The notes: generated by a model from the letters alone, not told the origin. DNA of 64,000 nt from a virus (IMGVR_UViG_2836824207_000004:10278-74277); one strand, 5' to 3'. Numbered from the stretch's first letter, positions 2,444 through 35,360 are shown. Numbers and translations: made by a program.

Positions 2444-2460
2444 TTTTCCTATTAGGAAAA
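2444..2460. promoter_or_regulatory. 17-bp near-palindrome TTTTCCTATTAGGAAAA (copy 1 of 6) in divergent helicase/rha intergenic region
   Basis: Exact motif, repeated at 10631, 20334, 25138 (inverse orientation), 28863 (half) and 35344 (half). All copies sit 30-70 bp upstream of minus-strand late-type genes. Confidence 0.5.
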
Positions 2461-2607
2461 ATCAAAATTTCTCTTTTCATCTATTTCTTATTATTCACTC
2501 AAGCCCTAAAAGATAGTGCCAGTACTCACGAAAGCAGCGTTTATACTTTCCGCTCGCTGTTTCTTTTAGGGTGCTTGAGTCACCTAGCGGAAATAAGGAA
2601 AGTTAAA

Positions 2608-3138
2608 ATGCAATTAGCCAACCCAGAAAATTTTAAACAGTTTGTACAAATTAAAGATAACAGTACGGTAACCACTTCTGAGATTGTGGCAAAAGTGTTT
2701 GGAAAGCGACACGATAATGTTATTCGTGATATTCGGGCTATTCTACAAGAATGCGATGAGGATTTTGCAAAACTCAATTTTGAGGTTTGTTTTAAAATCA
2801 ATAAGTTACAGAATGGTAAACCCACACCTTATTATAATTTAACTAAAAACGGATTTATGTTACTTGTAATGGGCTATAAATCCAAAAAAGCAATGAAGAT
2901 GAAAATTGCTTATATTCAAGCTTTTGATTATATGGCTGGTGAATTGGCAAAAGGGGCGGCAGGGTTACTAGAGCAGTATTATCAATTATTAGGTGAGCAT
3001 AATGCCGAAAAACAATTTGCTAGTCTTTGTGGCAAAGGGTTAAACCAATGGAAAGAGAAAAAACCATTAATTGAGGCAACACTTCGATTATTTGAAGACA
3101 AAATGCAAATTGAGCTACCATTATTGAATAAGCTCTAA
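2608..3138 (+). CDS. Rha-family phage regulatory protein (antirepressor-like)
   Basis: N-terminus MQLANPENFKQFVQIKDNSTVTTSEIVAKVFGKRHDNVIRDIR matches the Rha (pRha) domain pattern. An AAGGA RBS precedes the ATG at 2608. The track ORF starts earlier at 2347 but overlaps the helicase start. Confidence 0.7.
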   Translation: MQLANPENFKQFVQIKDNSTVTTSEIVAKVFGKRHDNVIRDIRAILQECDEDFAKLNFEVCFKINKLQNGKPTPYYNLTKNGFMLLVMGYKSKKAMKMKIAYIQAFDYMAGELAKGAAGLLEQYYQLLGEHNAEKQFASLCGKGLNQWKEKKPLIEATLRLFEDKMQIELPLLNKL

Positions 3139-3156
3139 GCATACGAAAAATTAAAT

Positions 3157-3186
3157 CCCTGTTGACCTCAGCAGGGTTTTCTTTTA
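3157..3186 (+). terminator. Rho-independent terminator after rha
   Basis: Hairpin ccctg-ttgacctcag-caggg followed by a T-run. Confidence 0.6.
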
Positions 3187-3320
3187 TATTACCCACATAG
3201 GCGTCGAAACCTACAACCAAAGGCGGTAATCCGCACCCGACAGCATAGCGGTTTTTTTATGCGTAAAATTTGTGTTTCTCCTTTTTTCTCATAACGAATT
3301 GAACGCACATATCACTCTAT

Positions 3321-3398
3321 GCCGAGAGGGCGGAGAATAAAACACCCGAAAGGGGAATAATCCCGACCGTTCCTTTGGCGGTTTTCGAACCTCTTGGC
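3321..3398 (+). ncRNA. Conserved structured 5-prime leader element, copy A (cis-regulatory RNA candidate)
   Basis: Closing stem gccgagagg / cctcttggc encloses an acccGAAAgggg GNRA hairpin and a second hairpin. It is homologous to copies B (4225-4301) and C (36564-36639) with compensatory base changes. It is preceded by a conserved block GCGGTTTTTTT..TAAAATTTGTGTTTCTCCTTTT. Confidence 0.35.
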
Positions 3399-3419
3399 AA
3401 CCCAACTTAAGGACTAGAA

Positions 3420-3899
3420 GTGCAATTTGTCGAAACAAGTGAGAATAACATCACTTATATTCATACCGAATTTAATATTGAAAATGTAACTTATTTAGCC
3501 ATTTTTTCAAAAGATGATGAAACGTTATTTTTCTTTAACGATGACGTAAATATAACAAAATACATTCATCATCGTCAGGTATATTCTATTAAATTTCTTG
3601 TGAAAGATTATCTTGAAACAGAAAATGATGATTTGTACGCGCCACCGTTGGATCATAAATTTGGCAAAAAACAAATTGCTGAATTAAAACAAAAACTTGA
3701 GGAAATTGTCTATCAGCATTATTTAAGGTTTAAGCCAGATTGCTATGTTTTTGTAGGGGAACGCCCTTCATTAATCAGAATGTATAAAAAACTTTGTGCA
3801 AACCCAAGCGATTTTATGGTAAACTTTAAGCCAATAACGGATTTAGGCAGTCATAGAGATTGTTTTGTGATAAAAACCCCATCCTACAAGGAGGAATAA
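3420..3899 (+). CDS. hypothetical protein (159 aa), GTG start
   Basis: ORF with an AAGGA RBS, lying behind leader copy A. No recognisable domain. Confidence 0.5.
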   Translation: MQFVETSENNITYIHTEFNIENVTYLAIFSKDDETLFFFNDDVNITKYIHHRQVYSIKFLVKDYLETENDDLYAPPLDHKFGKKQIAELKQKLEEIVYQHYLRFKPDCYVFVGERPSLIRMYKKLCANPSDFMVNFKPITDLGSHRDCFVIKTPSYKEE

Positions 3900-3900
3900 A

Positions 3901-4011
3901 ATGATGAAGAAAACGACCGCTGCCGAAATGAAAAAACAAGCAGCCCAAAAATTTAAAAAAGCGTATCAACAAGCGAAAAAAAATGGCGCACTAAAAGAAA
4001 TTTCAGAATAA
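3901..4011 (+). CDS. small basic protein (36 aa)
   Basis: Strong RBS AAGGAGG 8 nt upstream of ATG 3901. Sequence MMKKTTAAEMKKQAAQKFKKAYQQAKKNGALKEISE. Below the ORF-track length cutoff. Confidence 0.45.
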   Translation: MMKKTTAAEMKKQAAQKFKKAYQQAKKNGALKEISE

Positions 4012-4028
4012 CCCCCTTAGTACAATTA

Positions 4029-4060
4029 CCCCTAGCAGTGAAAATTGGTAGGGGTTTTTC
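4029..4060 (+). terminator. terminator-like hairpin plus T-run
   Basis: acccctagc...gtaggggttttt. Confidence 0.4.
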
Positions 4061-4224
4061 ATTTGACAACCCAAATTTATTTCATTACTATTAGTTTCAT
4101 AGGTGTCAGAACCTTAGTAGCGGGAATCCGCAACCGAAATCCAATGCGGTTTTTTTGTGTCTAAAATTTGGTGTTTCTCCTTTTCTCAGCCAAGTTTAAC
4201 AAAAAACGGTAAATGACAATCAAT

Positions 4225-4301
4225 GATCGAGTGGGTGAGGAATACAATACCCGAAAGGGAAATAACTCCAGCTTACTACTAGGCTTCTGAACCACTCGAT
4301 C
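4225..4301 (+). ncRNA. Conserved structured 5-prime leader element, copy B
   Basis: 10-bp closing stem gatcgagtgg / ccactcgatc, internal cccGAAAggg GNRA hairpin and agctt..aggct hairpin. About 85% identical to copy C, with GU and compensatory changes. Confidence 0.4.
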
Positions 4302-4360
4302 ACCAGTTACCTTTATGATAAAGGCAACTGACATTATTCAGAAAATTAGTAGAGGCAATT

Positions 4361-5257
4361 ATGTCAAATATCATCACCGCTGATTACAACGGCACTCAAG
4401 TTTTCTTTCAAAACGACGCTTATCTCAATGCAACAGCAATTGCTAAACGCTTTAACAAACGCCCTAATGATTGGCTAAATTTACCAACCACACAAGAGTA
4501 CATTGAAGCCTTATCAAAAGCCGAAACAAGAAAATCTGGTAACGCTACCAAAGTGGAAAAATCCCACTTTGTAAAAACAGTAAGAGGTGGTAAAAATTTA
4601 TCAAAGCAAGGAACTTGGCTACATCGCCGTTTAGCTGTTCCATTCGCCCGTTGGTTAAATGTTGAATTTGCAATTTGGTGCGATGAAGAAATCGAGAAAA
4701 TACTAATCGGGCAAAAACAGGCAAACTTATTAACAACAGAAAACGACACCATCACCCCCGAAGAACAACGCCTTATTCAAAACGCCGTTGCTGCAACTCA
4801 TCAACGTACCAAAATGAGTTATGGCGAAATCTGGGCAAGAGTGAAAAATAAATTTGCGGTGGCGAAATATGAGCAAATCAAACGCAAAGATCATCGTGAT
4901 GTGATGATTTACATTGCTTCAATGCACTCAATGCAAGAATTGCCACCCAATAGCCTTGCGTTAGATATGGAAAATTTCTATATGCTAGCTAAAGCAATGA
5001 ATTACATCAATCATTCTGTTGCCGCTTGGGAGCGTTTAGAAGATTTATTTTCTGATTTGGAAAGCCATAAAAACTACAAAACCGCTTTCAACCTTGGCAC
5101 TGCGAGCAATCGCCTTGCACAAACGCTAGAAAGCTTTATCGCCAAGCACACCCAATCGCTTAAAGATAAAAACATACGCGAAGAAATCGAAAACTTGATT
5201 TTTAACAGCCCAAGAACAGAGCAAAGCCCCACAAAAACCGTAAATTACTTACGTTAA
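4361..5257 (+). CDS. phage antirepressor: KilA-N-like N-terminal domain plus C-terminal domain shared with the 35588-36523 paralog
   Basis: N-terminus ITADYNGTQVFFQNDAYLNATAIAKRFNKRPNDWLNL is KilA-N-like. The C-terminal ~170 aa is ~95% identical to the paralog. Confidence 0.7.
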   Translation: MSNIITADYNGTQVFFQNDAYLNATAIAKRFNKRPNDWLNLPTTQEYIEALSKAETRKSGNATKVEKSHFVKTVRGGKNLSKQGTWLHRRLAVPFARWLNVEFAIWCDEEIEKILIGQKQANLLTTENDTITPEEQRLIQNAVAATHQRTKMSYGEIWARVKNKFAVAKYEQIKRKDHRDVMIYIASMHSMQELPPNSLALDMENFYMLAKAMNYINHSVAAWERLEDLFSDLESHKNYKTAFNLGTASNRLAQTLESFIAKHTQSLKDKNIREEIENLIFNSPRTEQSPTKTVNYLR

Positions 5258-5339
5258 AAACCTAACCAAAACCGACCGCACTTCCTCGTGAACCGTGTGG
5301 CGGTTTTGCTCAACCTAAATTCAGTGAAAAGGTGGAATT

Positions 5340-5456
5340 ATGTTCAGAATTTTAATGATTATCGGCTTGTTGTGGTGTGCGTACGAACTCGATTTAGCTT
5401 CAGACTGCGATGGGCATTATTGTGGAATAACCACAGATTTGTTAGTGAAAAAGTAA
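5340..5456 (+). CDS. small hydrophobic protein (38 aa), conserved in both antirepressor cassettes
   Basis: RBS AAGGTGG precedes the ATG. Sequence MFRILMIIGLLWCAYELDLASDCDGHYCGITTDLLVKK. The paralog at 35389-35505 differs only by conservative substitutions. Confidence 0.5.
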   Translation: MFRILMIIGLLWCAYELDLASDCDGHYCGITTDLLVKK

Positions 5457-5464
5457 GAAAAAAA

Positions 5465-5495
5465 CGACCGCACTTTGTTGTGCGGTTCTTTATCT
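5465..5495. terminator. bidirectional terminator formed by an inverted USS pair
   Basis: accgcac-tttgtt-gtgcggt flanked by A/T runs. It lies between convergent genes. Confidence 0.6.
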
Positions 5496-5502
5496 TTACC
5501 AC

Positions 5503-10500: not shown

Positions 10501-10598
10501 TGTTCTTCTACGGTTTGTGCTTCATTTTGATTCGGGTTTTCAAATAACCCATCTTTTTCTGACATTGTGCTACTCCTTGGCAAATTGAGATGCCACAT
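7554..10598 (-). CDS. large virion/ejection-type protein (1014 aa) with glycine-zipper membrane region, Trp-repeat region and GH19-like lysozyme domain
   Basis: Gly-zipper stretch GGAGKLGAGLLGGIGKLGKGIFGG. Repeated W-x-x-S/D motifs. C-terminal region ...GDGWRFRGRGLVQLTGRANYMRYGQ... is typical of GH19-like phage muralytic domains. Confidence 0.75.
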   Translation of the reverse strand: MWHLNLPRSSTMSEKDGLFENPNQNEAQTVEEQKRDTLVEIKEDTASIRDILENFGGRQIALLAQAEKQAKSRHLSEKRTNEELIQALKTPKVVDKVRSKNQENLHKVKQKEERNDKSRFDTGHFKERKTHPGKEKLNPVVKARQTKSSKQQTQPILEQNKPPKKKERTENAEVLPNQWQRDKNGRVRDKDGRFVKEAELDEQGIKNPTKSDSEEETQELARENAMVEVLSGIKDAIDTPDNLDPLIDGVKEITGPLGSVFDTTKTVVGATGRGFGKLFGGQDKEQRQHNRFFRFFKKFTKQQEKADNQQNSWLKRIWKKPNGNGVFGRLFGLLRMFARFPFLLARLPFMFATAIGRGLLKMLGGAGKLGAGLLGGIGKLGKGIFGGLGRLGKGALKKIPILGSLLAIGDGIGGLFDDSRDEEGKSNRGKRVGGAVGTLIGGGIGSLLGPVGTIAGAMIGDWIGEKIGAWAADFDWSIIGKKITGAWDASIAWIKDTWDNLSWDSFSAKVSAAWDSTSSWIKTQWDSLDWGSFGEKLNQIWEGVSSWITSVWNELDFSGVWKTTKNIGAKIKDGAVGLGIQAVQGAKNIGSSVKNWAVDKADSAISTISGWLGLNHSTPTENSPQEVEQQLQQVNHSQEENVNAISNTNERVSLSNEYLSLIFTTLNDIFAFLKEKLGGATYINEQVGYPTSSITENGMPVSNSSSVVSFDNKGDAAKARDAYIEIARKNGASEQDIRFALANMARETGDFAHGASENMNYSSAERIMAVHGAKIKKWGGDVNTLVRNPEALANVVYADANGSKLGNTQEGDGWRFRGRGLVQLTGRANYMRYGQMIGEDLVNNPDLVNDPVIAAKVADAYLKDRSYGKDFTRFSAGIIGNVTTNAHGRDALLKGQSKLNSVDKFMNNPVEMTGLSKQYVEKNTDLLSQMKPVSSIDGMVIPKIKQPQDTSKESLKIVEQETAKKATIEQQKVEQSTAQASNSLDPAAQYLTQDVSDRRIAHIVTGGIAQKGRI

Positions 10599-10630
10599 TA
10601 TCTAGCTCTGCTATCTTCTCGCCTCGGTAA

Positions 10631-10647
10631 TTTTCCTATTAGGAAAA
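10631..10647. promoter_or_regulatory. TTTTCCTATTAGGAAAA motif copy 2
   Basis: Exact 17-mer in the divergent intergenic region 10599-10714. Confidence 0.5.
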
Positions 10648-10714
10648 ATCCAAAAATCCGAATTCAGCTCATTTCTAAAATGAAAGCTCTATTTACACAA
10701 TACAGGAGCTTTTT

Positions 10715-11227: not shown

Positions 11228-11230
11228 TCA

Positions 11231-11614: not shown

Positions 11615-11616
11615 TA

Positions 11617-12528: not shown

Positions 12529-12536
12529 GAGGAAAA

Positions 12537-13161: not shown

Positions 13162-14154
13162 TTAACTATAATTTCTTGCACTTACCATCAATCCTCTTAC
13201 CCATTGCGGGATTTTCTGGCTATCTAGTCCCATTGATCTCACTTGGGCGATAAGTTCCAACAACCGATTTAAATCAAGATCACTTTCAATCGCAACAAGT
13301 GGCGAATGGTATTGTTCTAATTCGGTGTAAATATCATCAATCAACGTTGGCTTCGTTTCAGCTAATTTGGCATTCACCCAAGTTCCCTTTTTATATTCTT
13401 TAAGTACACCATCAAAATATAAGGTTTCGCCCTCTTGATAGGTGATGACGGGTTCATCTGCGGCATTGAGTAATGCCCAGTCAATCCGTGAACCCTCAAA
13501 ACGACGTAATAATTTAGCAATATTGGCAACACTCTCATCAGACATTACCGCTAAAACATCTTCACCATATTTTGACCGCACTTTGCTTTCTGTACCCAGA
13601 ATATATTGTGGGTTCGCTTTAAAATAACGCCCACTGATAAAGGTTTCCCATAAAACGTTCGCTTCTTTTAATATTTCTGGTGATGAATTTGCCAACTCAT
13701 CAATAATCAGTTTGTTAGGTCGGCTATGTTTCTTAAAGACCAATACATCAGTAACCACATCAGCCCCAGCAGTTTCAAACAGTTTATTCGGCAACCGATA
13801 CGCCCCCATAAATTCCGCTTTTAGAGAAATTTGATGGCGGATTTTGCGATAGCGTGTTCCCGTCATAATGCCTGTGCCACTCATAAACACAGCCAGCCCA
13901 TTCGGACGTAATTTATCTAGCGAACGCAAAATAAAGTAACTTTCTAGGTTTTCTTTTTGATAACGGCTATCTTTAAATTGATTACCCCCGCGATTATCCC
14001 CAAAAGGAACATTGGTAATCACTGCATCAACAATTTCATCTTCTGTCGCAGCAGCAACCGCCTCAAAGGGACTGATCGTAACTTTATGGCTATCATCATT
14101 AAATAAAATCTGATTGATTGTGCCACTCGTCTGATCAAGCTCAATACTTTCCAT
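13162..14154 (-). CDS. N6-adenine DNA methyltransferase C-terminal portion (motif IV NVPF); split from upstream ORF
   Basis: VITNVPFGDNRGG lies about 50 aa from the start. Motif I of the same domain is at the C-terminus of the preceding ORF. The junction is TAATG next to a G5 run. Confidence 0.65.
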   Translation of the reverse strand: MESIELDQTSGTINQILFNDDSHKVTISPFEAVAAATEDEIVDAVITNVPFGDNRGGNQFKDSRYQKENLESYFILRSLDKLRPNGLAVFMSGTGIMTGTRYRKIRHQISLKAEFMGAYRLPNKLFETAGADVVTDVLVFKKHSRPNKLIIDELANSSPEILKEANVLWETFISGRYFKANPQYILGTESKVRSKYGEDVLAVMSDESVANIAKLLRRFEGSRIDWALLNAADEPVITYQEGETLYFDGVLKEYKKGTWVNAKLAETKPTLIDDIYTELEQYHSPLVAIESDLDLNRLLELIAQVRSMGLDSQKIPQWVRGLMVSARNYS

Positions 14155-15080
14155 TAAAACATTTTGGGGGCTGTCGCACTAAAAATCCCCGTTCCCGCAC
14201 AAGGATCAAGCACTTTCCCACCACTAAATCCCATTTCCGTTAGCAAGTCCCACATTCCTTGTGCGATGGGTTTTGGCGTGTAATATTCATAGCTTGATCC
14301 TCGAGTTCCTTCAGCGGTAGTCAACCCACCACCAGATCCAGAATAATGCGATAAAATGATTTTTTGTTCTTGTGTAATGTCATCAATATTCATCTCACCA
14401 CGTTGAACTTTCTGTACAATCTCAATTGCCGCATTGTTGGCCGCTTGTCGTTGAGTTTGAGTTATGCCTTCGGGATTGTAATTAAATAAATCTGTAGGAT
14501 TAACTACTGTTTGTGATTCGTATTTGTCTCCTAGCCCTAAACTTTTTTCATACAATGATTTTAAATCTGAATATTCACCTACTAATTGATAAGATTGAGC
14601 ATCACCAATAGAAACCCAAGCAAAATCGTGCAATTCTTCTTTTTGTAATTTCACGTTTTGAGAGGCATCAACTACCAATAAGAAACGGTGCGATTCTCCG
14701 CCACTTGGTAGCTTTTTTTGCTCTAGAAATTCAACAGTACTAGCTTTAATACCTGTTTCTTCTTTTAATTCACGAATCGCTGCTTGTGCGGGAGTTTCGT
14801 TTTCTTCAATATGTCCGCCTGGGATCCACCATTTACCAGGTTTAAATTTGTCAGAAAGCGAACGTTGAACCAATAATATATTGCGATCTAAATCCTTAAC
14901 CAGCACATCTGCATAGCTATTTTGTTTATTTGACTCACGATCAATCACGCCTAATTGAGCAAGTAAGGCCTGAACCTTACCTGCTAACGCAATTTTTTGA
15001 ATAGGATTTGCTTCCGCTGTCATTGCATCGACAGCATCATTTAATTCGCCTGCCAACTTAATTTTTAATAAAGCATCCAT
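14154..15080 (-). CDS. Nudix hydrolase domain plus N6A-methyltransferase motif I (308 aa); truncated fusion
   Basis: Perfect Nudix box GGHIEENETPAQAAIRELKEETGI. C-terminus VLDPCAGTGIFSATAPKMF* is gamma-class methyltransferase motif I. Confidence 0.75.
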   Translation of the reverse strand: MDALLKIKLAGELNDAVDAMTAEANPIQKIALAGKVQALLAQLGVIDRESNKQNSYADVLVKDLDRNILLVQRSLSDKFKPGKWWIPGGHIEENETPAQAAIRELKEETGIKASTVEFLEQKKLPSGGESHRFLLVVDASQNVKLQKEELHDFAWVSIGDAQSYQLVGEYSDLKSLYEKSLGLGDKYESQTVVNPTDLFNYNPEGITQTQRQAANNAAIEIVQKVQRGEMNIDDITQEQKIILSHYSGSGGGLTTAEGTRGSSYEYYTPKPIAQGMWDLLTEMGFSGGKVLDPCAGTGIFSATAPKMF

Positions 15081-20266: not shown

Positions 20267-20333
20267 ATCAAATTATCCTTTTGTGAAAATAATAGGCACA
20301 GCATACGCACTTACTTTAAAGCGATGATTGCAA

Positions 20334-20350
20334 TTTTCCTATTAGGAAAA
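20334..20350. promoter_or_regulatory. TTTTCCTATTAGGAAAA motif copy 3
   Basis: Exact 17-mer between divergent starts 20266 (-) and 20417 (+). Confidence 0.5.
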
Positions 20351-20416
20351 ATACCGCACTTTTTCTCACTGTATTTTTCATAATACGGGTATATATCTCA
20401 ATAAAAAGGAAATGCA

Positions 20417-21283: not shown

Positions 21284-21285
21284 CA

Positions 21286-22982: not shown

Positions 22983-22985
22983 TTA

Positions 22986-23020
22986 AAAAGTGCGGTCATT
23001 TTCTACCGCACTTTTTTCTT
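22986..23020. terminator. bidirectional terminator (inverted USS pair)
   Basis: aaagtgcggt-cattttct-accgcacttttt between convergent operons. Confidence 0.6.
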
Positions 23021-23453: not shown

Positions 23454-23462
23454 AAGGTGTCC

Positions 23463-25097
23463 TTAATAATCGTTCTGTTGAGATTGTGAAGATATGATAG
23501 CTTTTGCATAAAGCTCCGCTTCATCTTGATCTAACAACATCTGTTTTGTCATAAATAGCACCATCTCTTTTTCACTAAATCCGAGATTTTTTGTTTGCTC
23601 TAGGGTCTGAGAGATCAGCCCCGCACTGCCTATCGCATTAGCTCGCGTTTGCTGGCGTTCTGATTCAAAGGCTGAAATTGAGCCATAGTAATTAATTTGG
23701 AATGGACGATTTGTGTTATTCCAGCATTTACCGTATTTATATAGCATATGTTTATCAATCAAATCGATAAAAAAATCAGCCATCGCAGCTCGAATAACTC
23801 GGCTAGACTCTGCAATTTGTGCCGACATTCTGAAAAATCCGCCATCACCTAATCCGCCAGACAACTGATCAGCAAAACCTAGCATAGACAAATCAATTCC
23901 TAATGTTCCCGCCAATAAACGTGCGTGAAGCATAATATCCTCTATTGAGACTGAGCCTTGACGACGAGAGCCCATTCCTTCGCCCTGTGTAACGACTTGC
24001 TTCTCTTCGTGGGTAAATAATACGTGGCGAATGCGGCCATATTGTGGCTCACCTTGCATTGCTTTATCTGCAAGGAGTTTAGATTTAAGCAGCGTTTGCT
24101 TAACATTTTGTGCAAGTTTTATTTGCTGTTCTCGTGTACCCCCGCTCATATTCACCATAATAAAACTTTCATCAATGGCATCGACTAAACGCTGTCCGAC
24201 AAGGGAAGCAAGAGAAATATAGAAATCGGTAAAAGGTTTTTCCGCAGTGAATAATAACGATCCGCCAATCATAGCGGGAACTATCGGCAATCGGTCAGGG
24301 TTATCTTCAGCAATATTATATTTATAGGATTTTGACAACATTCCCGCCTGCGGAACAGTAACAAATCTCGCCATTGCCATTCTAGCTATTTGTAAAGTCG
24401 TTAGTCTGGTCAAATGATGTCGTGTTGATCCCGCTAAAAATCCTACGGTTCGCCCGCCTTGTTCATAAGGCAAAATCAACGTAGGGTGAACCATTTCATC
24501 AGTTACTAACCCGACAAGCCCTTTGCCTTTCTCATAATAGGTTCTTGCATAACCATCACCAAAAGCCAACGCGTTGTAGGCAACAGAAAAGGCGTGCTTG
24601 TTAAACATTTCAGATAAATCAGAACGCACCTCCTCCAAAACTTTTTTATCCACTTCTGAAGCATTTGCGGCATCTTCAATAAAAACAACATCACCACTGG
24701 TTTCGTGTCCGCCCAATGCAGCTGTAACGTGCGTTTTAAGTGCTATCGAAATAACGGGATCTTTTTCCATTAATCGCCATTGCTGGTAAATTGCCGAACG
24801 AGAACGAGGCGGAGCATTACTTGTTCCCATCAATCCTGCAATAGTTAATCCACTTAAATCATCACCATAAGGCAACTCATAGGTTGAAGCCCATTGCTGA
24901 CTTTGACTAATCTCTTTTTCTTCAGGAAAAAGTAAACGATGTCTATCATCATCTAATAAGCGAGAGATTGAATTCGGTTTCGCGACAAGTGCGGTACTCT
25001 TTTCCGCTTGTTTTTCACCCAATCCAAACATACTTTTAAAAAAAGGCTTTTTTTTCAAAGGAAGTTCCATTCTCTTATGCCGTTCAAAATTTTTCAT
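23463..25097 (-). CDS. large structural-type protein (544 aa); portal-like is a guess
   Basis: Size and late-operon position only. No Walker motifs, so not a terminase. No motif match remembered. Confidence 0.3.
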   Translation of the reverse strand: MKNFERHKRMELPLKKKPFFKSMFGLGEKQAEKSTALVAKPNSISRLLDDDRHRLLFPEEKEISQSQQWASTYELPYGDDLSGLTIAGLMGTSNAPPRSRSAIYQQWRLMEKDPVISIALKTHVTAALGGHETSGDVVFIEDAANASEVDKKVLEEVRSDLSEMFNKHAFSVAYNALAFGDGYARTYYEKGKGLVGLVTDEMVHPTLILPYEQGGRTVGFLAGSTRHHLTRLTTLQIARMAMARFVTVPQAGMLSKSYKYNIAEDNPDRLPIVPAMIGGSLLFTAEKPFTDFYISLASLVGQRLVDAIDESFIMVNMSGGTREQQIKLAQNVKQTLLKSKLLADKAMQGEPQYGRIRHVLFTHEEKQVVTQGEGMGSRRQGSVSIEDIMLHARLLAGTLGIDLSMLGFADQLSGGLGDGGFFRMSAQIAESSRVIRAAMADFFIDLIDKHMLYKYGKCWNNTNRPFQINYYGSISAFESERQQTRANAIGSAGLISQTLEQTKNLGFSEKEMVLFMTKQMLLDQDEAELYAKAIISSQSQQNDY

Positions 25098-25137
25098 AAT
25101 GACATTTTGGAAGAAGTTAAGCTTAAATTTGTGGCAA

Positions 25138-25154
25138 TTTTCCTAATAGGAAAA
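25138..25154. promoter_or_regulatory. motif copy 4, inverse orientation TTTTCCTAATAGGAAAA
   Basis: Lies 41 bp upstream of the minus-strand start at 25097. Orientation follows the single downstream gene. Confidence 0.5.
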
Positions 25155-25213
25155 AATTTCAATGAAAAAGTAAAATAATAAACGGCAATATCACTTATCG
25201 CCGTTTATTTAAC

Positions 25214-26934: not shown

Positions 26935-26938
26935 AATT

Positions 26939-28810: not shown

Positions 28811-28862
28811 AATGTGTCTTTTACGTAAAATATGCTACGGAACAAAAAATCGAACAGTGCAA

Positions 28863-28879
28863 TTTTCCTATAATGACAA
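28863..28879. promoter_or_regulatory. motif half-copy 5 TTTTCCTATAATGACAA
   Basis: Left half-site conserved. It contains a TATAAT hexamer. Confidence 0.35.
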
Positions 28880-28920
28880 TATTCAAAAAAATGACCGCAC
28901 TTTATGCGGTCAATGAAAAA

Positions 28921-29244
28921 TCACTTTATAGCGGTAAAATCCTCCGGATATTGCCGCCGTTTCACCTCGCTTTCATAGGCGGTTTTGCAATGGTCTTTGT
29001 CGAAAAACAGCCCATTCACCAGCCGAAACCAAAACCGCCAGCGGGCTTTGGGTTTGCTCTCTAACACGGCTCGGCGGTAACAACGGCTGGAAAAGGTTTC
29101 ATCTGCCCCACCGCCCGTTAAGGCGTTGCAAAGTTGGTCGAGGGCAATCAAAACGTGATAGCCCCAAGTTTTAAATGGATTTTTCTTGCTCATTTTGGTA
29201 TTCCTCATAGGTTTGCGACCAGCCGATTGACCAGTCATACTCAA
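28921..29244 (-). CDS. hypothetical protein (107 aa)
   Basis: Track ORF that overlaps the end of the upstream tail-fibre assembly gene. Confidence 0.35.
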   Translation of the reverse strand: MSMTGQSAGRKPMRNTKMSKKNPFKTWGYHVLIALDQLCNALTGGGADETFSSRCYRRAVLESKPKARWRFWFRLVNGLFFDKDHCKTAYESEVKRRQYPEDFTAIK

Positions 29245-29809: not shown

Positions 29810-29824
29810 AAATTCCCCTTAATG

Positions 29825-32437
29825 TTAAGTTAATAAGCCAGCTTCTCTAAAATAACTTTCCAGTTCCTCTAATACTTCTGGTGCAAGTACAGTCTCTCTG
29901 CTTCTGCGGCTCGTTTTCCATCTACCGATTGCCAAAAACTGAATTCGCATCGCTCCTTGATTAATGGTTCTGTGTTCATACTCATAATAAAAACACTGTG
30001 ATTTGTTAGATTTAGTTAAAATATTTATACCGAAACTGTGAGGGGTATTAACCGAAGTGGTTAGTGATGCGAAAATTAATGGTATATCAATGAAGGCTTC
30101 AGGCCACATAAAGGATTTCTCTCGCGTACCCACAATATCATTTTGATTAAAACAATAGGTCTGAATCATTGTCCCATCGGGGTACTTCATCACTTCGAAC
30201 CCACCTATGACGGATTTATTTGAAATTGATCTTGCAATAGACTCTTTTATCAATAGCTTTAAATCCGTTATCTCACTTGCGGTATGCGTATGCGAAATGT
30301 CCGCTTTTTCTGCCCGCACTTGTTGGATATCTTGAGCCAAACGGCCCACCTCAAGCTCACCCGCATTGCTCACATTGCCAAAGGCTTTAATCCAAAACTG
30401 CACCCCATCGAGCGTGTTTTGTGCTTTAATGCAGAGTTTGAGAACAAGGGATTTCGGGCGCGTTTCTTCCGCAGTTCGTGTATCTTTATCCGTACCATCC
30501 TTCGTAGAAGCAAGGTAGGTTTTTGCCCTTACCCCATCGGCGACTGCCGTGTTGTTCGCCTGCACCCTGCCTTGTTGTGCAGACTTAAACGAACCTGGCT
30601 CCACATCGGTGGTATCACCATCACGAATGACGAGAGTGATATCTTTCTCGGCTTGATAATCGCCCCCTGCTTCGGTAGGAATATAGTGAAAGTGGTCTTG
30701 AAGGGTATCTTCTTGCACCTCACCCACCGCAAGCAATGCCCCCGCGTTACGAATAAAGCGGTCTTTCGCTTTCGGCACGGCGGAAAGGCTGCCATATTTC
30801 GCCACAAGGTGGCGATACAGTTCGGGATAAGCCTGTTCACTCACCTGCTCTTCAATGTCATCAAAGGCAATCCAGCCCGCCGGAATGTTATCTGTGGGAA
30901 AATACGCCGTCATTCCCACATCAGAGCGGCGTAAATCAGGCAGTTTGTTGTTATTGCCTAACGTGCGGTATAAATCGGGGTAAGTGCTACTACCAAAAGT
31001 TGAGCCATCGCATCGCAAAAATCCGTGCGGATTTTGCACCGCACTTGGAAATGCCACGACCGCGCCGACAGGAATGATGCTTTGGATTTTCTCGTCGACC
31101 CAACCCCGATACGCTACAACCTCATTTTTAGTAAGCTGCGGAAATGCTAAACAGCGTTGCTCGCCACTTGCAGAGCGATAGACATAATTAAATCTTGGGT
31201 CGGTTGCTGAGGCAGGATTGACGTCCCACTGCCAATAGCCACCATCGGGTAGGGTGGCACGGATGCGCCCCCAACGATTGTTAGCAATATTAATAAGACC
31301 TGTTGCGGTTATATCTGGTGCGGCAATATTACCCGTAAATGTCCCACCAAGCTCGGTCATAATGCGCTTTTGACCAAGGTGATTGCCATTGGCATCAAAG
31401 GCTGTCGTAAATATATCCCAAGCAATATTGCCCGTTGAGCTACCATAGCTAAAGCAAATCCCTCTAGCGTGAGCATTGGTGCTGTAGCTTGGGTGGGTAA
31501 TGTGCATCATCAACCCATTGAGTGGGAGATTATTAAGTCTAGCGCCGTTTGGACGATAAAACCCGCTGTAGGTATAGCCATTAGCCTTGGTATAGTCGAT
31601 GGTTTTCAAAAATGCCTCGCCACCAACCTTATCTAGCTTGATGTCGTTAAGGTCATACACTGCCTTACTGGTCGCCACGGTGTCGCTACTTGCCAAATTA
31701 ATTGCATTAGATTTTTTGCTGTTGGGGATATAGTTACTCAGATTGCGGGTTAAGGCATCAATCAGCCCTTTCAACGTTTTCCCCGCTTTGGCGGTGAGCC
31801 CTAGGGTTTCTGCTTCGCTATCGGTGGCGTTGGTGAGTTGCACAATGCCCGCTTGGCTTGTGCTTGCTTTGTCGATTTCGTGGCTGTGGCCCGTTTCCTC
31901 CACGGCGTTTTGGCTAGTGGCGGTGAGAGTTTTTGGGGTATATTGAGGGTGTGGATTATCTTCATTTTCGTGCTGATTTATGAGCTGAATAAGTTTATCT
32001 TGATCTTGCATTATTTGCACATCAATACGTTCAACAGGCATTGCTTCCAAGGCAAGCGAAAATGAAATTGTTGTCTCCACTTTATCAGAGATAAAAATTA
32101 ACCCTTCGCCTTTTATTTCATCCGAAGAATAAACAGCGATAAGCGTATTATTTGCCCAAAAACCAATTTCATTACACCAAAAACCTTCATCTTGTTCTGC
32201 TTTTATAACAAAACGCATCTGGATTGTTTTCTCATCTAATCTTACAGCGGATGCAATACCTACACGCAATCTCTCTTGTTTTAGGGAAGTTTCTTCTCCC
32301 GTTGGTCGATATTTTTCCGTACCAAATGCCGCGTGTGTAATAGTCAGCGATAAATGCTGATTATTATTCATCGTAGCGAGTTTTAATCCTGCCTTAGTTA
32401 TTGTTGGGGGGCTATTGATTTGATTTACAGCCATCAC
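29825..32437 (-). CDS. tail fibre protein, P2 gpH-like N-terminus (870 aa)
   Basis: GFWCNEIGFWANNTLIAV and ASTSQAGIVQLTNATDSEAETLGLTAKAGKTL parallel P2 H (GFWMRELGLYDDAGTLIAV; ASLTAKGFTQLSSATNSTSETLAATPKA). Also has C-terminal HTHT motifs. Confidence 0.8.
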   Translation of the reverse strand: MMAVNQINSPPTITKAGLKLATMNNNQHLSLTITHAAFGTEKYRPTGEETSLKQERLRVGIASAVRLDEKTIQMRFVIKAEQDEGFWCNEIGFWANNTLIAVYSSDEIKGEGLIFISDKVETTISFSLALEAMPVERIDVQIMQDQDKLIQLINQHENEDNPHPQYTPKTLTATSQNAVEETGHSHEIDKASTSQAGIVQLTNATDSEAETLGLTAKAGKTLKGLIDALTRNLSNYIPNSKKSNAINLASSDTVATSKAVYDLNDIKLDKVGGEAFLKTIDYTKANGYTYSGFYRPNGARLNNLPLNGLMMHITHPSYSTNAHARGICFSYGSSTGNIAWDIFTTAFDANGNHLGQKRIMTELGGTFTGNIAAPDITATGLINIANNRWGRIRATLPDGGYWQWDVNPASATDPRFNYVYRSASGEQRCLAFPQLTKNEVVAYRGWVDEKIQSIIPVGAVVAFPSAVQNPHGFLRCDGSTFGSSTYPDLYRTLGNNNKLPDLRRSDVGMTAYFPTDNIPAGWIAFDDIEEQVSEQAYPELYRHLVAKYGSLSAVPKAKDRFIRNAGALLAVGEVQEDTLQDHFHYIPTEAGGDYQAEKDITLVIRDGDTTDVEPGSFKSAQQGRVQANNTAVADGVRAKTYLASTKDGTDKDTRTAEETRPKSLVLKLCIKAQNTLDGVQFWIKAFGNVSNAGELEVGRLAQDIQQVRAEKADISHTHTASEITDLKLLIKESIARSISNKSVIGGFEVMKYPDGTMIQTYCFNQNDIVGTREKSFMWPEAFIDIPLIFASLTTSVNTPHSFGINILTKSNKSQCFYYEYEHRTINQGAMRIQFLAIGRWKTSRRSRETVLAPEVLEELESYFREAGLLT

Positions 32438-32506
32438 ATATCCTTAACGATAAAAATCTGTGAGGCTAGTATAAAAAGATAGATATATTTAATACTTGTT
32501 TTTTTC

Positions 32507-32833
32507 CTAAATCACCGTTTTATAAAATTCTCTTTTTTCTTGGTTATTTTCATATCCAGCACGAGATTTTATTTCTTTAAGCTGTTTTTCAGTAGGCAGA
32601 ACAAGAATCTGTTCATTAAGTGGCTCATCAAAAGAACCAAGCCCAGCGGCTGCCATAATAGTAAGAAACTCATTTCGTCGCCCATACACCCGTAGGCTTA
32701 CCAAAGTAAGATCGTGCTTTTCATCAAATTTTGTTTCATAACGAATTGCTGGTTCCCATTTTTTAGTTCTGATCGAAAAATCACGAACAAGTTGTACAAA
32801 CCTATTACAAGCCATAGAATGACTTTCTATCAT
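32507..32833 (-). CDS. hypothetical protein between the I-like and H genes
   Basis: Track ORF 32507-32920. It was trimmed to an internal Met to avoid overlap. Confidence 0.4.
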   Translation of the reverse strand: MIESHSMACNRFVQLVRDFSIRTKKWEPAIRYETKFDEKHDLTLVSLRVYGRRNEFLTIMAAAGLGSFDEPLNEQILVLPTEKQLKEIKSRAGYENNQEKREFYKTVI

Positions 32834-32846
32834 AAATCCCCCTGCC

Positions 32847-33512
32847 TTAAATAATTGGTAATCGGCACTTGCCTTTAAATGAGGCAAAATTAAACCCAGA
32901 AAATCCCGTTCCAATAACAACTTTTGAAGGCTTGTTTTTATTTCCTAGTTCTTTTTTTACAGTCAGTCCAACAACAAATCTAGCTCCTATAATTGATTGA
33001 ATTGTAGATACATACTGCAGTATTTGTTGCCCATCTTCGCTTATATCGGTGATTGAAATTTTTATCCTAGATGTAAGCCAATGAGGGGTGTTTTTTCTAC
33101 GAACTCCTTCGGCATTTACAAGCGATGTTGTATATGGTTTATCTGTTTCCTGCCACAATTGCTCAATAGTGAAGCCATCTGGATAAAGCATTTGTAAATA
33201 AGTACGCAGAAAATGAAAACCTCTTTTAGGGTTTTTAACTCGCCAAGCCTTAAAAAGATAACGAAGTCTATCAATATCGCCATCAGCACGCATTAGACTT
33301 AGCCCATCATTTAACGCAAATTTCGTTAATAATGCACTTTGAGCCAAATAAGGCGATCCATAATGTAATAAGTCCCTTTGTCTATGCCATAGCATTTTCT
33401 TAAAAACCCTAAGAAAAACATTTTTCCAAGCTAGTTCAATTTCCTCTGTCATTTCTGAGGCCACAAATGGATAAATAGGCGTGACCTCTTTTGCTCCTGT
33501 CTGATTTACCAT
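32847..33512 (-). CDS. tail protein I-like (221 aa), position-based
   Basis: Lies between the J-like and fibre genes, as in P2 and Mu. Confidence 0.4.
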   Translation of the reverse strand: MVNQTGAKEVTPIYPFVASEMTEEIELAWKNVFLRVFKKMLWHRQRDLLHYGSPYLAQSALLTKFALNDGLSLMRADGDIDRLRYLFKAWRVKNPKRGFHFLRTYLQMLYPDGFTIEQLWQETDKPYTTSLVNAEGVRRKNTPHWLTSRIKISITDISEDGQQILQYVSTIQSIIGARFVVGLTVKKELGNKNKPSKVVIGTGFSGFNFASFKGKCRLPII

Positions 33513-33514
33513 AA

Positions 33515-34978
33515 TTACTCCACTGTATTATATCCACCGCCCCACACGCTACTTTCATACCCATTAGACGTTAAATTAATTGTGATTGACTCTTTATCTA
33601 GGTATCGAAATACTTCGGGAGCGGAATTCACTCCATTAGATATTGATACATTTAAATCACTTCTTTTGTCCGCAAGTGCTGGAATTGCCTGCTCTATCAA
33701 ACTAAATACTTCTTTATTTTTTACAACAACCTTCCCTTGCTTGGTTGAAAAAGCATTTTTGCCATATTCTTGTAACAAAAGATCAATGATTTGAGCTTTA
33801 ACTTGTAATACATCATAAGCTCTTGCAATGATTGCATTAACGGTAATATGAATTTTTTCTGTAATTGGTTCAACGAACTTTGTCTTATAGGAGTCATCAG
33901 CTTCCGCAATGACTTGTGATATTTGTCGCTTGATAGATTCTTTACTTTCAACTGAATTATCGGGTAAAGCAAAAGAGTAAAATAGCGTATTAACATTATT
34001 AATGTCAGCCCCTCGTATTTTTTCTTCTATCTGTTCATTCCATACGGCTAGAAATGCCAAATGATTAAAGTTTTTACGAAGTAATTTATCAAACTCACCG
34101 AGAAATACAGCATTATCATCATAAGTCGAAGGATAATTACACAAGTTTCTTAATGTTGCTATGTCAATAGGATTTTTCCCCGCCCGTTTTAATGCTTTCA
34201 TTTCTAAATTAATCTCGTTTTCCTCATTAGCTTGAATATATTGAAATGAAAATGTACTTCCAAGCTCAGGCTGAATGTCGCCAAAACATTGTCCGCACTC
34301 TATCGTTATAACATCATTAATCGAGGGTTGAAATCCCACAACGGAGGTTTCACCAAACTTGACATATAAACGTTTATATTCATCTGACTCAATATGAAAA
34401 ACCTTTTCTCCCGCATCAACACCATTAAATTTAAAACAGGGGTCAAATACCTCACCATTGACTTTCACTTGAATAGTAGATATATAACTACCATCCTTTG
34501 GCTCTTCAACCTCAATAGCATAAAATGGATAGGACTCGCTCATAGTATGAGAGTGTTTAACAAATTGTAATTGGGTTGCCATAATTTCTCCCTCACCATT
34601 ATTTTGCGTTGAAGCTGGTAATGTAACAGGGCTGTCAATTCGATACATACGTCCGCTTGCGTCAAATAAATAACGACCCGCTTCAATCCTAACAGGCGTA
34701 TTGCCATTATTAATGGCTTTAATCTGAACAATCGCGGGCTTTGCAGTAAAGATTAATCCTTTCAAGGCGGCATCTGCCAATACGGTTGCGTCTCTTGATT
34801 TCAAAAAAGGCTCTTGCATTGCGACTTCAAGTTGCTGGCTATACATAGCAAGCATTTGAGCGATTGCCCCTTGCATTTGTAAAAATCTCGGATCGCCCGC
34901 GTGATACAAGGCGGCAGTCAGCTCGTTTTTTAACGCCTCTTCTTTCACCGCTTCAAGGAAGTCTTCTTTGGTGTACAT
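33515..34978 (-). CDS. baseplate J-like protein (487 aa), position-based
   Basis: Large baseplate-sized gene upstream of the I-like and fibre genes. Confidence 0.45.
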   Translation of the reverse strand: MYTKEDFLEAVKEEALKNELTAALYHAGDPRFLQMQGAIAQMLAMYSQQLEVAMQEPFLKSRDATVLADAALKGLIFTAKPAIVQIKAINNGNTPVRIEAGRYLFDASGRMYRIDSPVTLPASTQNNGEGEIMATQLQFVKHSHTMSESYPFYAIEVEEPKDGSYISTIQVKVNGEVFDPCFKFNGVDAGEKVFHIESDEYKRLYVKFGETSVVGFQPSINDVITIECGQCFGDIQPELGSTFSFQYIQANEENEINLEMKALKRAGKNPIDIATLRNLCNYPSTYDDNAVFLGEFDKLLRKNFNHLAFLAVWNEQIEEKIRGADINNVNTLFYSFALPDNSVESKESIKRQISQVIAEADDSYKTKFVEPITEKIHITVNAIIARAYDVLQVKAQIIDLLLQEYGKNAFSTKQGKVVVKNKEVFSLIEQAIPALADKRSDLNVSISNGVNSAPEVFRYLDKESITINLTSNGYESSVWGGGYNTVE

Positions 34979-34988
34979 TGTTCAATCC

Positions 34989-35300
34989 TCACATAATATC
35001 TAACACAATATTGCCAATCTCTAAGATAAAGTGCATTTTATCTGGACTCACAGGCACAGAATAAATGTTCACCGCATCAGGAGGGAGCATATCCAAAACG
35101 GGAACATCTCGACGCAATTTAGCAATCACTTCATCAGCCGCCCCCATTGTAAGCGGAGCGAATAACAGGGCGTGTTTATCAAAACCATAATCAGACCCTA
35201 AATAGCTATTCACAGGTGTTGCCAACCAATGCCGCACCATTTTTTCAACATCACTTTGTGTAATTTTTGCTGTTTCCATAATGACAATGAACCTCATCAA
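34989..35300 (-). CDS. baseplate W/gp25-like small protein (103 aa), position-based
   Basis: First gene of the operon, directly behind motif half-copy 6. Confidence 0.35.
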   Translation of the reverse strand: MMRFIVIMETAKITQSDVEKMVRHWLATPVNSYLGSDYGFDKHALLFAPLTMGAADEVIAKLRRDVPVLDMLPPDAVNIYSVPVSPDKMHFILEIGNIVLDIM

Positions 35301-35343
35301 ATTAATGCTATTATCGGGGTTTACTTTCCTTGACTTCGCTAAA

Positions 35344-35360
35344 TTTTCCTAATAAAAAAC
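35344..35360. promoter_or_regulatory. motif half-copy 6 TTTTCCTAATAAAAAAC
   Basis: Half-site upstream of the start at 35300. It overlaps a USS hairpin. Confidence 0.35.

Follow-up and report, generated by a model that had tools for sequence, protein, structure and literature searches.

A repeated element in a P1-like prophage of Avibacterium paragallinarum as the probable upstream recognition site of activator-dependent late promoters

How the late genes of a P1-like phage are switched on, when they are dispersed over both strands, is the question raised by a short near-palindromic repeat in a 64,000-nt stretch of viral DNA, analysed here as a whole and referred to as the window. The initial annotation had described six copies of the repeat as marking the late operons and left open whether an activator or a repressor binds them. 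The DNA belongs to a P1-like myovirus whose early region is lambdoid. This phage resides as a prophage in Avibacterium paragallinarum and exceeds the window, continuing past 64 kb rightward and for about 10 kb leftward. Matches in the window to Prt, Pro, BplA, PmgG, gp5, gp25, DarA, DarB, Hdf, Ulx and Sit (tblastn, 20-41% identity), together with tblastx matches to P1 ssb, hrdC and dmt, replace the P2-style gene labels (W-J-I-H) used earlier by P1-like ones, whereas the integrase and the lambdoid immunity/nin region set the phage apart from P1. Megablast against 50,697 phage records revealed no annotated near-identical phage, only a 334-bp endolysin match, and a search of IMG/VR with close alignment returned the same three Avibacterium contigs and nothing more.

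The motif scan of the window placed exact copies of TTTTCCTATTAGGAAAA at 2444, 10631 and 20334, one exact copy of TTTTCCTAATAGGAAAA at 25138, and copies of the 17-mer with three mismatches at 28863 and 35344. The four palindromes and two half-sites are thus present where they had been annotated, but a seventh site, TTTTTTCCTA at 32500-32509 (minus strand TAGGAAAAAA) upstream of the tail-fibre gene, had been overlooked. The 17-mer scan gave 10 strand-matches against 0.84 expected, a count of at least 10 being reached in 0 of 100 shuffles, and the 10-mer AATTTTCCTA occurs six times exactly, on the plus strand only (2442, 10629, 20332, 25136, 28861 and 35342). The repeat can be written as TTTTCCTA-T-TAGGAAAA, represented by four exact 17-bp palindromes plus half-sites. 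The copy at 25138, formerly read as reversed, differs from the other palindromes in its central base alone (A) and shares its left flank GCAATTTTCCTA with the sites at 20334 and 28863, and it is therefore not functionally inverted. The central T/A base was considered as an indicator of orientation and rejected, having no consistent relation to the direction of transcription. A hairpin or terminator reading of the palindrome was also discarded on inspection, since 8-bp arms with a 1-nt loop are unable to fold.

Each of the seven gaps at operon heads in the late region carries the element, which is present in none of the convergent or early-region gaps of the window. In agreement with the initial annotation, no copy with promoter architecture is present from 35.5 to 64 kb, where TAGGAAAA occurs once more, at 60931, but lacks a -10 at the fixed distance. 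The copies do lie upstream of minus-strand modules as had been stated, but the three palindromes of divergent regions stand at a mirror-image distance upstream of plus-strand operons as well.

Our analysis revealed that, of the 12 TAGGAAAA octamers in the window, 10 have a -10-like hexamer exactly 2+26 bp downstream, against a background of 2.6-7% for such a hexamer at a set distance (P about 1e-10 to 1e-14). The resulting promoter consensus consists of TAGGAAAAWT, 26 bp and a -10 box without a -35 box; conservation across promoters at the -35 position is zero, and TAGG is invariant in 12/12 promoters of the phage. A2 and T6 are found in all ten hexamers, each with at least four of six matches to TATAAT, and the start codon lies 30-33 nt past the hexamer in seven of the ten promoters. 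A sigma-70 consensus scan did not detect these late promoters, and its promoter-like matches were fewer than expected from shuffles; this is the expected outcome where the -35 is absent. Seven sites thus give ten promoters in the window, on both strands. In all three divergent intergenic regions each half of the palindrome has its own -10, and the promoters there are accordingly predicted to be bidirectional. The functional unit is the half-site TAGGAAAA(W)(W). Isolated half-sites, judged by architecture, appear to suffice at several promoters, yet full palindromes are kept at some unidirectional ones (25138 here, 7497 in the related phage L128, 11389 and 17647 in L131).

In the palindrome at 2444..2460, a predicted bidirectional late promoter, two half-sites stand back to back, minus-strand TAGGAAAATT at 2442-2451 and plus-strand TAGGAAAAAT at 2453-2462. 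On the minus strand, CATAAT (2410..2415) lies 26 bp past the half-site and 32 nt before ATG 2377 of the DarB-like helicase gene; on the plus strand, TATTAT (2489..2494), again 26 bp past its half-site, is separated by a 113-nt leader from ATG 2608 of a Rha-like gene, which is followed by KilAC/Ant genes. A comparison of the Rha-gene leader with Rfam gave zero credible families. The second palindrome (10631..10647), likewise predicted to serve both directions, is flanked on the minus strand by GATAAT (10597..10602), 31 nt before ATG 10565 (SD AAGGAG) of the Sit-like tape-measure/transglycosylase operon, and on the plus strand by TAAAAT (10676..10681), 33 nt before ATG 10715 of the tail-tube operon. 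The upstream ATG 10598 chosen by the ORF-finder falls within the minus-strand hexamer. At the third putative bidirectional promoter (20334..20350), TATGCT (20300..20305, minus) precedes by 33 nt ATG 20266 of a 1401-aa DarA-like protein, whose gene heads an operon continuing with NUDIX and DarB methyltransferase genes, and CATAAT (20379..20384, plus) precedes by 32 nt ATG 20417 of a Pro-like 288-aa gene with three genes downstream.

The fourth palindrome (25138..25154) shows promoter architecture on its minus-strand side only, where CAAAAT (25104..25109) stands before two genes, portal (Prt-like) and Ulx-like, and not before a single gene as annotated. The portal ATG 25097 is 6 nt past this hexamer and an alternative ATG 25070 is 33 nt past it; an mRNA read from ATG 25097 would possibly be leaderless. 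The remaining sites are minus-strand half-sites. TAGGAAAATT at 28861..28870, with a degenerate distal half, is followed by CATATT (28829..28834) and an operon (ATG 28810 or 28795) in which the PmgG-like gene precedes holin, endolysin and spanin genes and then an Hdf-like gene. The seventh site, TAGGAAAAAA at 32500..32509, is followed by TATACT (32468..32473), 33 nt before ATG 32434 (SD AAGGA) of the tail-fibre gene, which is accompanied by an assembly gene. At 35342..35351 TAGGAAAATT abuts the T-tail of the early-operon terminator (35358-35379), and GATAAT (35310..35315) lies 30 nt before ATG 35279 of a gene of ~95 aa (listed ORF 34989-35300), followed by a BplA-like baseplate gene. Altogether the late genes fall into 10-12 units on the two strands, each with a promoter of its own and set apart from the next by terminators.

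This constant arrangement bears on whether the repeat acts at the level of DNA, as a packaging or partition site or as the crossover of an invertase or shufflon in recombination. Such a role would suit dyads that are nearly perfect and asymmetric at the central base, and also the split DarB-like gene, which lies in two pieces (13162-15080 and 1-2377) with 10.8 kb of tail genes between them, a block bounded by motif-bearing regions. Yet the placement relative to gene starts and the -10 hexamer does not vary between copies, half-sites are conserved alone, no invertase gene was found among the annotated ORFs of the window, partition is unneeded in a prophage with an integrase, and near-identical relatives share the gene order with no inversions between copies; we regard a DNA-level function as extremely unlikely. 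An element read by the host, either as an UP-element-like A-tract for the alpha subunit of RNA polymerase or as the site of a Pasteurellaceae transcription factor, would account for the A-rich GGAAAAWT at the position of the proximal UP subsite (about -46 to -38) and for conservation over phages of several Pasteurellaceae genera. An A-tract does not explain the invariant TAGG, the four matches of the full 17-mer in the Avibacterium representative genome are all within the prophage, and if the host alone recognized the element, the lysogen would express lysis and virion genes constitutively; this explanation is very improbable.

The fixed -10 spacing, the absence of a -35, the presence of the element at every late operon head and its conservation in diverged phages agree with its being the site of a late-gene regulator, as initially proposed. 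We consider it fairly probable that at least ten late promoters depend on an activator which recognizes the repeat as their upstream element, and that a 213-aa XRE protein is the most probable activator. Virion, lysis and anti-restriction operons would all be switched on by late promoters carrying the repeat. If the hexamer is taken as -12 to -7, the element TAGGAAAA(A/T)(T/A) would occupy about -48 to -39, a numbering which, like the transcription start, is assumed from the hexamer, and would be followed by 26 bp without a -35 box and then by the sigma-70-type -10 hexamer. Since the -35 box is absent, the promoters are expected to be silent without the activator, which would bind the element and recruit host RNA polymerase, probably through contact with sigma region 4 or with the C-terminal domain of alpha immediately past the site. 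In divergent late operons the two half-sites fused back to back as the 17-bp palindrome might allow one bound site to fire both ways, with a parallel in the LP26/LPpmgL pair of P1. Computation establishes the motif, its constant distance from the -10 hexamers, the missing -35, its confinement to late operon heads, its conservation, and the XRE fold and synteny of the candidate; transcription starting at the hexamers, positive action, the 213-aa protein as the binder and its binding as a dimer are what we infer.

An activator is much likelier than the repressor that had been left open as an option. A 17-bp site that is dispersed and phage-specific does resemble the scattered 17-bp operators of P1 C1, through which late operons might be silenced in the lysogen, and XRE proteins are often repressors. 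However, the site lies upstream of the -10 and of the would-be -35, overlapping neither; promoters without a -35 need help and not blocking, and a phasing to the -10 kept strictly at 26 bp is what contact between activator and polymerase typically brings about. The element is also missing around cI-cro, the place expected for immunity operators, and tblastx with P1 91.5-94.8 kb detected no C1 homologue and no C1-like operators. The candidate gene, moreover, sits in the repressed early operon and would therefore be unexpressed in the lysogen, so that a repressor operator seems quite implausible.

The candidate late activator (213 aa, 39835..40476, minus strand) combines an N-terminal XRE/Cro-C1 HTH, a five-helix lambda-repressor-like DNA-binding domain, with a C-terminal domain of long helices (about 120 aa, without known relative). 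It belongs to phrog_7396, in a family with 545 cluster representatives at E <= 1e-3, and showed zero Q-type Pfam or PHROG matches; Mor/C-type Pfam domains were matched neither by it nor by its 119 relatives. Its gene, one of the last in the early-right operon, directly follows NinG, and synthesis so near the operon's end would provide the early-to-late delay. The element spacing is preserved in six diverged Pasteurellaceae phages, and all six encode a homologue (35-81% identity, recognition helix conserved), always between the nin genes and TerS/TerL, like lpa in P1. The late switch is thus probably the 213-aa XRE protein, as initially suggested, on the circumstantial grounds of co-occurrence with the element and a conserved recognition helix; this co-occurrence is confounded by common descent of the entire late region.

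It is rather unlikely that the late-activator site is read by a different phage protein, such as the 220-aa partner, a Rha/Ant-type protein or the product of a gene outside the window, with the 213-aa protein as a packaging or immunity accessory. The window holds only part of the prophage, and a gene of 220-235 aa is as tightly linked to the late region. This partner (220 aa, 39183..39845, minus strand), always downstream of the candidate activator, has weak small-terminase PHROG matches and is followed by TerL in L133, L140 and L142, and is probably the small terminase. The Rha and Ant genes lie downstream of the element and would therefore be late products, and the left extension encodes only an integrase, the sheath, a phrog_1014 protein, TerL and a helicase. 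Of the DNA-binding proteins, in turn, the 213-aa protein alone keeps its linkage to the late genes as immunity and replication modules vary.

Within the 17-bp dyad the half-site centres are 9-11 bp apart, a spacing compatible with the 213-aa protein binding as a dimer. The regulator had been assumed to be dimeric; the palindrome, however, is not always kept, and the promoter-proximal half-site is the conserved unit. In relatives without the palindrome, outward-facing half-sites are separated by 14 bp in L137 and by about 36 bp in L014, and because of this separation obligatory dimer binding to the full dyad is not established. Half-site-only promoters and the 14/36-bp separations sit awkwardly with a simple dimer-on-palindrome model. 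In the more distant homologue contexts L141 (from a 65% GC host) and L142 (with a changed recognition helix) zero GGAAA elements were present among few intergenic regions, too few to define an alternative element, and co-variation of recognition helix and half-site was set aside for these two. The exact palindrome in Spirabiliibacterium mucosae (L018), with zero similarity to the window, was taken as a chance singleton, like ~100 further matches scattered over genomes.

The 11 LP promoters of P1 carry a 9-bp inverted repeat AAGTNACTT at -22, followed by 4 bp and TANNNT, and depend on the activator Lpa (PMC10695390). Both phages are P1-type myoviruses with late genes in many operons on both strands, headed by a short dyad-type element and a -10 hexamer without a -35; in both, one palindrome can serve two divergent promoters, the activator gene lies just upstream of the terminase genes (lpa-pacA-pacB versus 213 aa-TerS-TerL), and control extends to orthologous operons (portal, sit/tail, dar/lysis, tail fibre). 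The element itself is unrelated in sequence and lies about 26 bp farther upstream, with a spacer of 26 bp instead of 4 bp: all extracted P1 promoters read AAGT/ACTT-N4-TANNNT, whereas the sites of the window read TAGGAAAAWW-N26-hexamer. Lpa is phrog_1704, unlike the XRE HTH candidate, and no homologue of it was detected in the window by tblastn (E <= 0.01) or by PHROG; the candidate gene belongs to a lambdoid nin-type early operon, and that of P1 is under a C1 operator.

Mu C (and Mor) recognizes a 16-bp dyad centred at -43.5 and overlapping the -35 (PMC2582627). Mu late promoters also have a -10 without a -35, and a small phage HTH activator bound upstream of or over the -35 region, at a centre close to that deduced here for the proximal half-site (about -44). 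Mor/C are nevertheless of a different fold and family, Mu has only four late promoters, all unidirectional, and here the dyad centre, at about -49, does not overlap the -35 and a half-site alone could suffice. By the assumed numbering, neither the dyad centre (about -49) nor the proximal half-site (about -44) falls on one of the classical class I/II positions. Lambda cI at PRM and the C-proteins of restriction-modification systems are XRE-type HTH dimers activating via sigma region 4, but their main task is repression or autoregulation, at one or two promoters. The 213-aa protein has an extra C-terminal helical domain and, as an activator dedicated to late genes, would run at least ten promoters. 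The gene position is shared by lambdoid Q, the last regulatory gene after ninG/rusA and before the late genes; Q acts through one PR'-qut site and a single long late transcript, and antitermination from one site cannot serve here because there are 10-12 separate units on both strands with terminators between them. Ogr, B and Delta of P2/186/P4 bind TGT-N12-ACA at about -55 of four unidirectional promoters. These phages likewise combine an upstream dyad at a fixed distance from -10-only late promoters with a temperate myovirus lifestyle, but their activators are zinc-finger proteins and the site differs in sequence and position.

Positive late-gene control via -35-less promoters is a textbook expectation and no concept is overturned. 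The motif, the phage type and the protein family as a late activator were not found described in the literature. If confirmed, the analysis would provide a complete sequence-defined late regulon (12 promoters in the prophage) for a hitherto undescribed group, the integrated P1-like myoviruses of Pasteurellaceae, including those of the poultry pathogen Avibacterium paragallinarum, as well as a testable function for an uncharacterised XRE-domain family of hundreds of phage and prophage clusters. It would also mean that a non-homologous activator, using another promoter geometry, can run P1-style scattered bidirectional late operons, the regulator having been replaced while the genome plan stayed conserved. 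Going further, and somewhat short of an even chance in our judgement, the 213-aa protein might be the founder of a widespread, hitherto unrecognized late-activator family that replaces Lpa of P1-like phages and Q of lambdoid early regions, acting via a single 8-10-bp half-site at a rigid 26 bp from the -10 in an about -44 geometry distinct from P1, Mu, P2 and lambda, and able to drive a divergent promoter pair from a single fused dyad. In practice, late operons of related prophages can be annotated with the help of the element, which also corrects several start-codon calls, for example to 10565 instead of 10598.

The palindromic repeats listed in the initial annotation proved exact in position, both the four full 17-mers (2444, 10631, 20334 and 25138) and the two half copies (28863 and 35344). 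With up to three mismatches allowed, 10 strand-matches were found in the window against 0.84 expected, a number that no shuffle reached, and all six occurrences of the 10-mer AATTTTCCTA are on the plus strand. A seventh site, TAGGAAAAAA (32500-32509, minus strand), had been overlooked upstream of the tail-fibre gene. The copy at 25138 had been described as a reverse-complement form, and its central base does differ, but as this is the sole difference and the left flank is common to the other three palindromes, the label has no functional meaning.

Alignment of the sites along the gene direction revealed an invariant TAGGAAAATT and, after 10 of the 12 TAGGAAAA octamers of the window, a -10-like hexamer (A2, T6 and at least four of six matches to TATAAT) at offset 37-42, that is, 26 bp past the 10-mer, while every other offset gathers at most two. 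Such hexamers are found at 2.6% of window positions (binomial P 9e-15), and at the same offset they follow 7% of 228 background half-sites drawn from unrelated genomes that chance to carry the 17-mer (binomial P 1.6e-10). At 2444, 10631 and 20334 the promoter architecture is present on both strands, with the hexamers TATTAT, TAAAAT and CATAAT on the plus side and CATAAT, GATAAT and TATGCT on the minus side, respectively; at 25138 it is found on the minus side only, in agreement with the lack of a plus-strand gene there. Across the 12 paralogous promoters of this phage (10 in the window and two in the related contig L014), numbered with the hexamer set at -12 to -7, positions -48 to -41 are invariant, T at -39, C at -37 and the -10 are conserved, and the distal half (-55 to -51) is partly conserved, with no conservation at -35.

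In seven of the 10 window promoters the hexamer lies 30-33 nt ahead of the start codon. The upstream ATG of the Sit-like gene (10598) falls within the -10 hexamer, which shows that the predicted start of this gene is 10565. All seven operon-head gaps of the late region carry the element and none of the three convergent gaps does. The cI-cro gap holds a PR-like promoter with an ordinary -35 (TTTACA-17-TATCAT) and without the element. In the portal gene (25097-25109) and the TerL gene (L014 5950-5964) the ATG lies exactly 6 nt past the hexamer, so that transcription would begin at or beside its A, and leaderless mRNAs are possible for both; an alternative portal ATG (25070) stands at the usual 33-nt distance.

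In the divergent gap of L014 between the phrog_1014/sheath operon and TerL, two outward-facing half-sites lie about 36 bp apart, each with its own -10 at N26; two half-sites are 14 bp apart in L137, another related locus, and three promoters of the window (28870, 32509 and 35351) have no more than a degenerate distal half. Given these separated half-sites and degenerate distal halves, the predicted unit is the half-site, and the palindrome is two promoter-proximal half-sites fused back to back. Full dyads are retained at unidirectional promoters (25138 in the window; 7497-7513 in L128, and 11389 and 17647 in L131, two further related loci), and cooperative or dimeric binding, with the distal half used when available, is plausible.

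Operon ends carry intrinsic terminators formed by inverted pairs of AAGTGCGGT (5467-5486, 22988-23013, 28894-28917 and 35358-35379), a motif with 28 copies in the window that we take to be the Haemophilus-type uptake signal sequence (USS). Such a USS-pair terminator (35379-35358) closes the early-right operon, and its T-tail extends as far as the half-site at 35351. We propose that the 213-aa XRE-type protein (39835-40476, minus strand), produced near the end of the early-right transcript, would bind TAGGAAAA at about -48 to -41 and recruit the sigma-70 holoenzyme to promoters that have a -10 and lack a -35. One fused dyad would drive both directions in divergent regions, and USS-pair terminators would set the transcription units apart; the rigid 26-bp spacer suggests direct, stereospecific contact between protein and polymerase. 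A dispersed repressor operator, the other role initially suggested for a dimeric factor, is very unlikely, as the site lies clear of the core promoter, no -35 is present and the candidate gene itself belongs to the repressed early operon. Sites for recombination, packaging or partition are scarcely credible, since the copies show promoter architecture and gene order is stable among relatives.

The 17-mer was found in 112 stretches in 596 Gb of genomes, approximately the chance number, scattered over unrelated taxa, and it clusters only in this Avibacterium prophage family. Independent lineages were reached through diverged homologues of the 213-aa protein. In Rodentibacter (81% identity), TGGGAAAATC-N26-CATAAT precedes the DarB helicase and TAGGAAAATC-N26-GATAAT the baseplate operon, and CAGGAAAATA-N26-TACAAT is also present. 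A metagenomic phage (80%) carries CGGGAAAAAT-N26-GATAAT, TAGGAAAATC-N27-TACAAT and CAGGAAAATT-N26-CATAAT, and two more phages (46% and 44%) carry TAGGAAAATT-N26-GAAAAT and TAGGAAAAAT-N26-CAAAAT. The element likewise stands at the heads of late operons in L137 (39%) and Gallibacterium (35%). When these six loci are pooled in an unfiltered histogram, offset 37 holds 12 hexamers, whereas the remaining 47 offsets average 3.2 and reach at most 7. Recognition by the host, UP-like or through a host factor, is highly improbable, considering that TAGG is invariant, that the distribution is exclusive to phage and that lysis genes need to stay silent.

Near-identical Avibacterium prophages carry an extra full palindrome (L012 6756-6772, L046 7584-7600, L005 6932-6948 and L006 6578-6594) some 231 bp past the counterpart of window position 38778 (equivalent to about 38540), a place taken in the window by higB and the T5orf172 gene. 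Of its two sides, the one with TAATTT at N26 leads into a Bro/KilAC-type gene and the one with TAGAAT at N25 points toward the HigA-like XRE gene.

Only eight clusters are close to the 213-aa protein, and all come from Pasteurellaceae or metagenomes. In every context its gene follows nin genes (NinG, or YbcO/RusA) and precedes a 220-238-aa gene with weak small-terminase matches, directly after which TerL is found in three related loci (L133, L140 and L142). This placement (213-aa gene, TerS-like gene, TerL) matches the lpa-pacA-pacB order of P1, and it is kept although these phages differ in their immunity and replication modules. Conservation is high over the N-terminal ~95 residues. Among the eight closest homologues, down to 44% identity, N41-E49 (NTSMISKME) does not vary; those at 39% and 35% show only conservative changes there and still use GGAAA(A). 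A profile search collected 545 family representatives of 200-280 aa (196 at E <= 1e-10), most of them with HTH_31 or HTH_3, and against structures the family profile matched XRE/Cro-C1 HTH proteins (ImmR, 4.8e-16; also SinR, 434 and P22 c2). The AlphaFold model (119 sequences; pLDDT 90.6) has a five-helix HTH followed by long helices; in fold searches the HTH alone finds matches, among them lambda cI-NTD in complex with sigma region 4 and the restriction-modification controller proteins. That another phage protein binds the element retains a small but real probability. Homology of the 213-aa protein to Lpa was ruled out by tblastn and PHROG comparison. Within the HTH-coding part of the 213-aa gene, AAGGAAAAGC-N27-TATACT (40358-40399, minus strand) is conserved in L128 and L131, which probably reflects coding-sequence conservation and not a promoter. 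At the TerL position, L137 (10729-13305) and L140 (11315-13885) encode a protein of ~857 aa with domains of the homing-endonuclease/intein kind (Hom_end_hint, LAGLIDADG), which suggests an intein-containing large terminase.

The closest known system in logic is the P1 Lpa regulon, whose 11 promoters combine a 9-bp inverted repeat with a -10 but no -35 and include one bidirectional pair that shares its repeat (PMC10695390), and the closest in position is Mu C, with a dyad centre at -43.5 (PMC2582627). Element sequence, spacing and protein family all differ from both, so the present system belongs to neither class. A late-promoter scheme of this kind is not surprising as a concept; it is of interest mainly because it supplies a predicted late regulon in full and gives an uncharacterised XRE-domain family a function that can be tested.

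The prophage is a P1-like myovirus that is integrated and has lambda-style early control, a combination of which no description was found in the literature. The window is 93-99% identical to Avibacterium paragallinarum NCTC11296 and to three IMG/VR contigs, which, together with the USS copies, identifies A. paragallinarum as the host. According to PHROG assignments and tblastn with P1 proteins, 1-35.4 kb holds P1-like late functions: a DarB-like methyltransferase/helicase (split into separate genes), a DarA-like protein of 1401 aa, a Sit-like tape-measure/transglycosylase, tail tube, gp25-, gp5- and Pro-like proteins, portal (Prt), Ulx, Hdf, holin/endolysin/spanin, a PmgG-like protein, tail fibre and the BplA baseplate protein. 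The lambdoid early-right operon (35.6-46.2 kb, minus strand) runs cro, cII, Ant-like, O-like, DnaC, methylase, NinB and NinG, followed by the 213-aa protein, the 220-aa protein, a HigBA pair, a T5orf172 protein and Ant. The stretch at 46.3-64 kb (plus strand) holds the repressor and the early-left operon, in which recombination genes are accompanied by P1-like ssb, hrdC and dmt, and L014 reaches about 10 kb further left through TerL, a phrog_1014 protein, sheath and integrase. The ssb, hrdC and dmt homologues (56197-56490, 57673-58416 and 61554-62918; up to 63% amino-acid identity to P1 in tblastx segments) extend the P1 relationship past the virion and dar genes.

The P1 DarB-like antirestriction protein is split into three genes, two of which (13162-14154 and 14154-15080) encode the methyltransferase and the NUDIX plus N-terminus parts, and the third (1-2377) a helicase of 1714 aa; a late promoter of its own serves the helicase gene, and 10.8 kb of tail genes stand between it and the other two. 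The HigB/HigA-like toxin-antitoxin pair and the T5orf172/MUG113/DUF4041 protein (jointly 38492-39073, plus strand, and 37043-38305, minus strand) sit between the TerS-like gene and the late region, an insertion absent from close relatives. A tRNA gene lies within the early-left operon (50860-50932, plus strand; Rfam tRNA, 42 bits).

Leaders of about 110 nt run from the late promoter to Rha or Bro/KilAC genes (window 2495-2607, L012 6807-6916, L137 13427-13530) and have in common a long-range stem in which the changes are compensatory (CCCTAAAAG/CTTTTAGGG, CCTGTAAG/CTTACAGG and CCATAGGA/TCCTATGG); they match no Rfam family and may represent an undescribed cis-regulatory leader. Three copies of sRNA-Xcc1 (RF02221; 3321-3406 and 4225-4309, plus strand, and 36558-36639, minus strand) score 72, 61 and 60 bits against a gathering score of 53 (Rfam). 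Each lies directly 5' of an accessory or antirepressor-type gene (a 159-aa ORF at 3420, KilAC/Ant at 4361 and Ant ending at 36523), and they look like conserved leaders of moron-type gene cassettes.
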